Of a DNA stretch of 1,334 nt, positions 1-1,334 are shown one piece after another. The position numbers and the translations under genes were made by a program. Under the pieces are notes generated by a model. It worked only from the letters and a program-made list of their open reading frames with translations, was not told where the DNA came from and did not search any database. The stretch lies in the NCBI RefSeq assembly GCF_003334305.1, contig NZ_QOWS01000058.1; one strand, 5' to 3'. The stretch comes from Escherichia coli (GTDB taxonomy: Bacteria; Pseudomonadota; Gammaproteobacteria; Enterobacterales; Enterobacteriaceae). Within the stretch, counting starts at the first letter, position 1, and every line of letters starts with the position of its first letter.

Positions 1-1334
1 CCGGACGGGCTTCGCAGCAGCCGGGAGTATGATGAGAAGGGAAGGCTGACGGCGGAGACCTCGCGCAGCGGTGAGACAACGCGGTACAGCTATGATGACC
101 CGGCGAGTGAGCTGCCGACAGGGATACAGGACGCGACGGGCAGTACAAAACAGATGGCATGGAGCCGTTACGGTCAACTGCTGGCCTTCACGGACTGCTC
201 GGGGTACACGACGCGGTATGAGTACGACCGGTACGGTCAACAAATCGCCGTTCACCGGGAGGAAGGCATCAGCACTTACAGCAGTTATAACCCGCGTGGG
301 CAACTGGTCAGTCAGAAGGATGCGCAGGGGCGGGAGACCCGTTATGAGTACAGTGCCGCAGGCGACCTGACAGCAACGATATCACCGGACGGTAAACGCA
401 GCACCATCGAATATGATAAACGCGGGCGTCCGGTGAGTGTGACGGAAGGCGGTCTTACGCGCAGCATGGGGTATGACGCTGCCGGGCGCATCACCGTGCT
501 GACCAACGAGAACGGCAGCCAGTCCACGTTCCGGTATGACCCGGTGGACAGGCTGACTGAACAGCGCGGTTTTGACGGCCGGACGCAACGTTACCACTAT
601 GACCTGACCGGAAAACTCACGCAGAGTGAAGACGAGGGGCTTATCACCCTCTGGCACTACGATGCGTCGGACCGCATCACGCACCGGACGGTGAACGGCG
701 ACCCGGCAGAGCAGTGGCAGTATGATGAGCACGGGTGGTTAACCACCCTCAGCCATACCTGTGAAGGCCACCGCGTGTCGGTCCACTACGGCTATGACGA
801 TAAAGGCCGCCTGACGGGTGAACGGCAGACGGTGGAGAACCCGGAGACAGGGGAGATGCTGTGGGAGCATGAGACGGGGCATGCGTACAGCGAACAGGGG
901 CTGGCGACCCGTCAGGAGCCGGACGGTCTGCCGCCGGTGGAGTGGCTGACGTATGGCAGCGGTTATCTTGCGGGGATGAAGCTGGGCGGAACGCCGCTGG
1001 TCGAGTACACGCGGGACCGGCTGCACCGCGAGACGGCCCGTAGCTTCGGCGGGGCGGGCAGTACAGCGGGGTACGAACAGGCCACGGCGTACACCCTCAC
1101 AGGGCAGCTACAGAGCAGGCACCTGAACCTTCCGCAGCTTGACTGTGACTATACGTGGAACGATAACGGACAACTGGTGCGCATCAGCGGCCCGCAGGAG
1201 TGCCGGGAGTACCGTTACAGCGGCACGGGAAGGCTGACGGGCGTCCACACTACGGCAGCGAACCTGGATATCGATATCCCGTATGCGACGGACCCGGCAG
1301 GAAACCGGCTGCCGGACCCGGAACTGCACCCGGA
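1..1334 (+). CDS. Rhs-family YD-repeat protein, conserved core region (internal fragment; 5' and 3' ends lie outside the window); polymorphic toxin / T6SS-associated effector family
   Basis: Seen in sequence: frame +1 (codon 1 = nt 1-3) has no TAA/TAG/TGA across all 444 codons. The translation contains at least 10 canonical YD-repeat units (consensus roughly Y-D-x-x-G-R-L-T/I) at about 21-residue spacing, plus several degenerate ones, and GC-rich codon usage (ctg, ccg, gcg, acg, cgc, ggc). Established knowledge: this pattern is diagnostic of the Rhs / YD-repeat family, and from memory the translation is clearly homologous to, but not identical with, E. coli K-12 RhsA-type core sequence. The specific paralog cannot be assigned without a database search, so no gene symbol is given. 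Confidence 0.95.
25..831 (+). repeat. Protein-level tandem YD-repeat array within the Rhs core (about 21 codons / 63 nt per unit; degenerate at DNA level)
   Basis: Y of the YD (or YD-like) motif falls at codons 10, 31, 57 (degenerate RYGQL), 75, 96 (degenerate YNPRGQL), 117 (YS), 138, 158, 179, 200, 220, 241 and 265, i.e. nt 28, 91, 169, 223, 286, 349, 412, 472, 535, 598, 658, 721 and 793. Spacing is 20-24 codons between canonical units. Two further units lie at codons 384-392 (YTWNDNGQL, nt 1150-1176) and 404-413 (YRYSGTGRLT, nt 1210-1239). Confidence 0.8.

Follow-up and report, generated by a model that had tools for sequence, protein, structure and literature searches.

An internal fragment of an Rhs core, very probably from the RhsH-type gene of the Escherichia coli RhsG-H subfamily

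The DNA analyzed here, a stretch of 1,334 nucleotides referred to below as the window, encodes Rhs repeats that differ at many positions from those of the E. coli K-12 Rhs proteins. This raises the question of whether it comes from a different Rhs subfamily, from an RhsD- or RhsE-like gene, or from another enterobacterial species, all of which had been proposed in a sequence-only reading. Frame 1 of the plus strand is open, without a stop, over all 1,334 bases, and the other five frames contain between 3 and 29 stops. The window has a GC content of 62.7% (74.8% at third codon positions), and because of this composition it also holds long antisense ORFs that are meaningless. The 444-codon translation gave eight matches to the Pfam family RHS_repeat (PF05593) at E<=0.001 and otherwise nothing notable, and its Y[DE] motifs are spaced 20 to 24 aa apart, typically ~21 aa. 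A single long ORF carrying tandem YD/RHS repeats places the window in the RHS element core protein family (NCBIfam NF041261; the clade I Rhs of Jackson). The only DNA repeats detected in it are motifs of 14 to 28 nt that arise from recurring YD-repeat codons (e.g., GRLT and PDG); scans of the window for Rfam families, tRNAs, and inverted repeats found none. The coding features are as follows.

1 to 1334, plus strand: internal segment (codons 492 to 935 of 1,420) of an RhsH-type Rhs core ORF, in open frame 1 with both ends running off; 100% match to the WP_053266815.1 coding sequence.

28 to 825, plus strand: YD/RHS repeat array, predicted from homology to solved T6SS Rhs effectors to form beta-cage shell strands; PF05593, period ~21 aa, with matches at aa 10-49, 55-89, 96-132, 138-173, 158-195, 179-208, 200-233, and 241-275.

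1156 to 1257, plus strand: additional RHS repeat (aa 386-419; Pfam E=4.6e-4).

When compared with the K-12 genes by blastn, the window was 71.2% identical at the nucleotide level to rhsA and rhsB and 70.9% identical to rhsC, the alignable part being window positions 154 to 1334; over the whole window-equivalent alignment, the values were 70.1% and 70.0%, respectively. The window protein shares 70.0% of its residues with RhsA and RhsB and 68.9% with RhsC. The nearest K-12 genes were the rhsE remnant (82.2% nucleotide identity over window positions 739 to 1334, the portion that K-12 retains; 78.9% at the amino acid level) and rhsD (77.2% by blastn; 76.6% at the amino acid level), and rhsD was also the top K-12 match in a search of E. 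coli genomes (77.6%). The proposal that the window has diverged from the K-12 RhsA/B/C core was therefore borne out, and nothing approaching 100% identity to those three genes was seen. Five peptide blocks that had been quoted as common to the window and the RhsA-type core lie at window aa 58, 151, 190, 315, and 410. All five are present in the window and in K-12 RhsA and RhsB (RhsC has three of the five and RhsD four), so this resemblance had been described accurately.

E. coli Rhs genes have been assigned to three subfamilies, namely rhsABCF, rhsDE, and rhsGH (PMC2935791, Jackson 2009), the last of which is credited there to Wang, Zhao and Hill (1998, J Bacteriol 180:4102). The K-12 rhsA, rhsB, and rhsC cores were 96 to 99.9% identical among themselves, and rhsD was 96% identical to full-length RhsE at the nucleotide level. 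The window has neither the near-identical core that marks RhsA-B-C-F membership (70.0 to 70.1%) nor the ~96% identity to rhsD or full-length rhsE that marks RhsD-E membership (76.5 to 76.8% in the window-equivalent region). Over the same region, it was 92% identical to the Rhs genes of the yafV/T6SS locus. A neighbor-joining tree separated the A-B-C cores, the D-E cores, and a group made up of the window and the yafV-locus genes, and of these three clades the A-B-C and window clades had 100% bootstrap support; in this comparison the yafV-locus genes served as a proxy for RhsG, in place of the ECOR-11 RhsG and ECOR-45 RhsH reference cores. Since the window forms a clade of its own with the yafV-locus genes, we place it in the third subfamily, rhsGH, which is missing from K-12. 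Both the grouping and the extent of divergence (23% from D/E and 30% from A/B/C) agree with RhsG-H membership; Wang, Zhao and Hill are said to have found, in 1998, that G/H cores are about 22 to 29% diverged from the other two subfamilies.

These results bear directly on the suggestion that the window is RhsD/E-like. An RhsD/E-subfamily core would account for rhsD and the rhsE remnant being the nearest K-12 genes, yet a D/E core would be expected to share the 96% identity that D and E have with each other, and the window instead falls in a separate, fully supported clade with the yafV-locus genes. Moreover, the higher identity of the rhsE remnant is explained by a tract of H/G type at its 5′ end (window positions 739 to 804). 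The location of the gene, considered next, was the other point in favor of this alternative.

We compared the window by megablast with 5,426 complete E. coli genomes and took the best place in each. Identity at that place was at least 99% in 560 genomes, 95 to 99% in 271, 90 to 95% in 1,654, 80 to 90% in 71, and 60 to 80% in 1,163, and an exact (100%) copy of the window was present in many of the chromosomes. In strain AMSHJX01, it corresponds to positions 12001 to 13334 of the locus, inside a coding sequence (10528 to 14790) for the 1,420-aa “RHS element core protein” WP_053266815.1. The genes at this locus lie in the order yncG, yncH, VgrG, an Rhs gene (frameshifted), IS1/ISAs1 remnants, a hypothetical gene, DUF3969, the Rhs gene that contains the window, dsORF-h1, ISAs1, pptA, yddH, and nhoA. 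The three 100% matches whose context was read (AMSHJX01, 258E, and Z1322HEC0001) share one layout in which the window gene is the second of a tandem Rhs pair; in 258E, the gene is annotated as frameshifted, at a position elsewhere than the window. In K-12, the interval between yncH and pptA contains the rhsE pseudogene and ydcD; this interval is locus 6 of Jackson et al. 2009 (PMC2935791). The location of the window gene at the rhsE locus might thus appear to favor a D/E assignment, but the true RhsE is the upstream member of the tandem pair and is followed by dsORF-e4 (in 258E and Z1322HEC0001). Taking the sequence and locus evidence together, we consider it very improbable that the window is a D/E core.

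The ORF directly downstream of the window gene carries, for its exact sequence, the UniRef name “DsORF-h1” (RepID O52667_ECOLX; UniProt O52667). Both this ORF and the tandem position with RhsE were present in all three of the exact matches, the window itself ending inside the core. We take Hill's RhsH to be the element that stands in tandem with RhsE and is followed by an ORF named h1, a description that matches the observed arrangement. Three things underlie our use of the name RhsH: the dsORF-h1/O52667 label, the citation in Jackson et al., and this tandem position. With high confidence, then, the sequence comparisons point to the window being an internal fragment of an E. coli RhsG-H core, from the RhsH-type gene that, in many strains other than K-12, lies just downstream of RhsE in the yncH-pptA interval. 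The feature thus belongs to an already known class of E. coli gene (RhsH type, RhsG-H subfamily).

The survey also speaks to the proposal that the window is either from a different Rhs subfamily or from an enterobacterium other than K-12. Its first part stands, in that the subfamily is distinct and absent from K-12; the second does not reach beyond E. coli, where many chromosomes hold exact copies. An origin in another species could draw on the existence of clade I Rhs genes beyond E. coli (PMC2935791), on Shigella sonnei entries in the 90% protein cluster, and on a relative in E. albertii. That relative, however, was the best found in another species by a scan of species-representative genomes and is only 88.8% identical at the nucleotide level (88% at the amino acid level), with Citrobacter amalonaticus following at 68% (64% at the amino acid level). 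Two contigs from metagenome-assembled genomes (MAGs) labelled Akkermansia muciniphila (SFDX01000073.1, 3.6 kb) and Collinsella sp. (JAIJJM010000952.1, 1.1 kb) were 98 to 99% identical at the nucleotide level; they match the E. coli locus, and their RhsH-type sequence most likely reflects mis-binning. The relatives found in the species scan therefore leave an origin in another species unsupported, and we regard it as barely credible. The window has genuinely diverged from its K-12 counterparts, but such divergence is ordinary and has already been described; it looks unusual because the comparison was limited to K-12 paralogues, which lack the RhsG-H class. The window can be labelled an RhsG-H-subfamily core, a class that K-12 lacks, and beyond this correct annotation the finding has little importance.

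The relatives at 90 to 95% identity belong to a T6SS cluster adjoining yafV, ivy, and fadE, where they are the Rhs members of its Hcp-VgrG-Rhs arm. This yafV locus is locus 1 (dnaQ-fadE) of Jackson et al. (PMC2935791). In strain NIPH17_0020, it contains an H-type core from approximately gene position 1233, followed by the tip, dsORF-h1, and ISAs1 (locus positions 5900 to 12648; 99.6% identity over 4.5 kb), and this cassette abuts a truncated tssM. The yafV locus is also, presumably, the map position of Hill's RhsG. The arrangement in NIPH17_0020 indicates, from its sequence, that the cassette moved between loci together with a deletion, and this deletion probably inactivates the T6SS of that strain. 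Since the yafV locus, too, can carry an H-type core followed by dsORF-h1 (99.7% identity to the window), assignment of the window to the rhsE locus rests on the three sampled exact matches. A source in such a yafV-locus (RhsG) cassette, or in an E/H or G/E chimera of the kind known from strain 4 and O111 strain 110512, was accordingly weighed. The NIPH17_0020 copy falls short of 100%, the two chimeras are only 83 to 91% identical across the window, and all three exact matches that were examined lie at the rhsE locus, which leaves either source unlikely and the rhsE-locus RhsH gene as the preferred origin.

The core of this RhsH-type gene is a mosaic. H-type and yafV-locus cores were 93 to 99% identical over most of the gene, and within the window they were 95 to 100% identical outside divergent patches; identity fell to 63 to 75% at window positions 361 to 480 and to 78 to 90% at ~1020 to 1200. 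Four features of the plus strand are of note in this context.

369 to 447, plus strand: polymorphic one-repeat patch, ATISPDGKRSTIEYDKRGRPVSVTEGG; against the first two yafV-locus genes sampled, it shows 37 differences in 79 nt.

643 to 804, plus strand: H/G-type tract present in some RhsE-locus genes; 27 consecutive H-type informative sites with one exception, and bins 601 to 780 at 98 to 100%.

918 to 924, plus strand: crossover interval of the RhsE/RhsH chimera of strain 4, with 60 E-type sites up to 917 and 120 H-type sites from 925.

1020 to 1230, plus strand: in the alignment, the most variable stretch across all subfamilies, including a loop of variable length at ~1050 to 1075; H-type versus yafV-locus identity 78 to 90%.

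The patch at 369 to 447 (…DKRGRPVSVTEGG…) is equally unlike the A/B/C and D/E cores. As a candidate source, another repeat in the same gene or locus was rejected, no match longer than 16 nt being found. An import specific to RhsH was likewise ruled out: the patch is present in 2,056 of the 5,426 genomes, including in the yafV-locus Rhs gene of O111 strain 110512, and it is therefore a shared polymorphism and no peculiarity of RhsH. In the loop at ~1050 to 1075, indels between subfamilies range from 3 to 19 nt; relative to the window, O157 RhsG is shorter by 12 nt and RhsA and RhsC by 19 nt, and D/E genes and one RhsG allele are longer by 3 nt. One idea is that the patches at 369 to 447 and ~1020 to 1230 are not neutral debris of gene conversion but allelic versions of cage segments that face inward and are selected together with particular toxin tips, i.e., a co-adaptation of shell and cargo. 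The patch and the loop region segregate at the yafV locus and also at the rhsE locus. Because the 369-447 allele pairs with at least two tips, one linked to dsORF-h1 and one to YdcD, we think such co-adaptation improbable.

Exchange between loci is evident from the other two features. The H/G-type tract extends from 643 to 804 in strain 2018-05-5CC and from the 5′ end of the remnant, at ~739, to 804 in K-12 rhsE; judged by its run of informative sites, the tract appears to be the footprint of gene conversion or of a chimera. Strain 4 has a single Rhs gene at the rhsE locus (7552 to 11790) that is of E type upstream and 100% H type downstream and that has kept dsORF-h1, which looks like a deletion produced by recombination between tandem RhsE and RhsH cores. 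The yafV-locus Rhs gene of O111 strain 110512 (7173 to 11877) is of G/H type to approximately window position 830 and of E type thereafter, is followed by ydcD, and shares 94.5% identity with the rhsE remnant of K-12 (5891 to 8405). Given this resemblance and the H/G-type start of the K-12 remnant, a G/H-to-E chimera of this kind may be the ancestor of the rhsE fragment in K-12. Rhs cores have long been known as recombination substrates, and the mosaicism observed here is consistent with that. A mosaic core with gene-conversion patches and with E/H and G/E chimeras is typical for Rhs genes, and it fits the shuffling of Rhs tips described by Jackson et al. (PMC2935791). The window thus displays known Rhs behavior, with three old subfamilies in one species and with tips and core segments reshuffled between loci. 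In practice, such shuffling is a warning for read mapping, for assembly, and for MAG binning of Rhs regions.

The ends of the window were examined as candidate biological or assembly boundaries. Its last base (1334) is the exact end of RhsH homology in an RhsH-nhoA fusion in strain STEC2017-197 (locus positions 9334 to 9336), a junction that is private to that strain among the 5,426 genomes. STEC2017-197 differs from the window at seven positions, and no microhomology was found at its RhsH-nhoA deletion junction. The 5′ end of the window had no match when compared with lesions. A further candidate explanation, that the ends are boundaries of exact identity with the sampled paralogues, was rejected, as neither end matches one.

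Beyond the window, the full-length AMSHJX01 protein scored 2649.3 bits against the NCBIfam model NF041261 (RHS_core; cutoff 2000) over residues 1 to 1260, at the level of an equivalog, and also matched TIGR01643 and TIGR03696. A literal PAAR tetrapeptide is found at residues 5 to 8, although the Pfam PAAR model gave no match to the N terminus, and DUF6531 lies at residues 49 to 126. The end of the core, which is outside the window, matches PF03527 (RHS; E=2e-14) and reads ...YYDPLQGRYITQDPIGL...IDSLGL. The combination of core-end motif (DPxG-x18-DPxG/RHS domain), AT-rich tip, and small downstream ORF is therefore present in AMSHJX01, in the region past the window. The core has a GC content of 63%, and the values are lower for the tip (14278 to 14790 in locus coordinates; 36%) and for dsORF-h1 (14802 to 15251; 33%). 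An HEFAH motif occurs in the tip, which also gave a weak hint of Peptidase_M91 (E=0.021). Neither the tip nor dsORF-h1 had a relative in the PDB or a match in NCBIfam or PADLOC; the presumptive toxin-immunity pair therefore looks uncharacterized. At the rhsE locus, the gene with VgrG immediately before it is the upstream RhsE and not RhsH, and at the yafV locus the sister genes have Hcp and VgrG directly upstream. Where these sister genes carry VgrG, RhsH is always directly preceded by two small conserved ORFs, a 150-aa hypothetical ORF and a 64-aa DUF3969 ORF (AMSHJX01 locus positions 9535 to 10447). Neither of the two belongs to an NCBIfam or PADLOC family, and they may represent an adaptor or a remnant.

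What this protein might do can be proposed by analogy. The window aligns to the cage of P. aeruginosa Tse5 (8cp6_B residues 395 to 824; E=1.2e-62) and to those of P. protegens RhsA (7q97), Tse15, and Tre23/Rhs1; for Rhs1, the cage, encapsulation of the toxin, and aspartyl autoproteolysis have been demonstrated (PMC8636562). By homology, the 444 YD/RHS codons of the window would form approximately the central third of a beta-sheet cage. Along the complete protein, a short N terminus with the PAAR tetrapeptide is followed by DUF6531, the predicted YD-repeat cage, the conserved core-end RHS region (...QDPIGL...DSLGL), and the AT-rich HEFAH tip. The cage would enclose, protect, and carry the putative tip toxin, possibly a zinc metallopeptidase. 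If the gene behaves like the solved effectors, the protein would sit on a VgrG spike, the type VI secretion system would propel it into neighboring bacteria, aspartyl autoproteolysis at the core end would free the toxin, and the dsORF-h1 product, a putative immunity protein, would protect the producer.

Among named systems, the window gene most resembles E. coli RhsH (Wang, Zhao and Hill 1998, cited in PMC2935791): it stands in tandem behind RhsE at yncH-pptA, with dsORF-h1, a GC-rich core, an AT-rich tip, and ISAs1 (the H-repeat), and no difference from RhsH was detected in these features. The names RhsG and RhsH were also given, ad hoc, to the short fragments z0702 and z0272 in a study of the EHEC T6SS (PMC7216683); these are unrelated to Hill's genes, and the clash could mislead annotation. 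The yafV-locus Rhs genes are of the same subfamily (92% nucleotide identity over the window) and are alike in architecture but differ in locus, tip, and partner (Sel1-repeat or YdcD rather than dsORF-h1), and they diverge at window positions 369 to 447 (some alleles) and ~1020 to 1230. K-12 RhsD and the rhsE remnant belong to the same family, have the same repeat order, and share four of the five quoted blocks (RhsD) or the rhsE neighborhood; they differ in identity (77% at the nucleotide level and 76.6% at the amino acid level), in falling in a separate clade, and in their unrelated tips. K-12 RhsA, RhsB, and RhsC likewise share the family and the repeat order, and RhsA and RhsB share all five quoted blocks, but at 70 to 71% nucleotide and 69 to 70% amino acid identity they are more distant, with a 19-nt difference in loop length at ~1055 to 1075 and with the first 153 nt of the window unalignable by blastn. 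Finally, the window aligns to the YD-repeat cages of the solved T6SS Rhs effectors (Tse5, 8cp6; P. protegens RhsA, 7q97; and Photorhabdus Rhs1/Tre23, 7pq5) with E values of 1e-62 to 1e-28. The solved effectors are only distantly homologous, come from other genera, and have other N-terminal loading domains and other toxins; they are known from structures, whereas the window protein is known from sequence.
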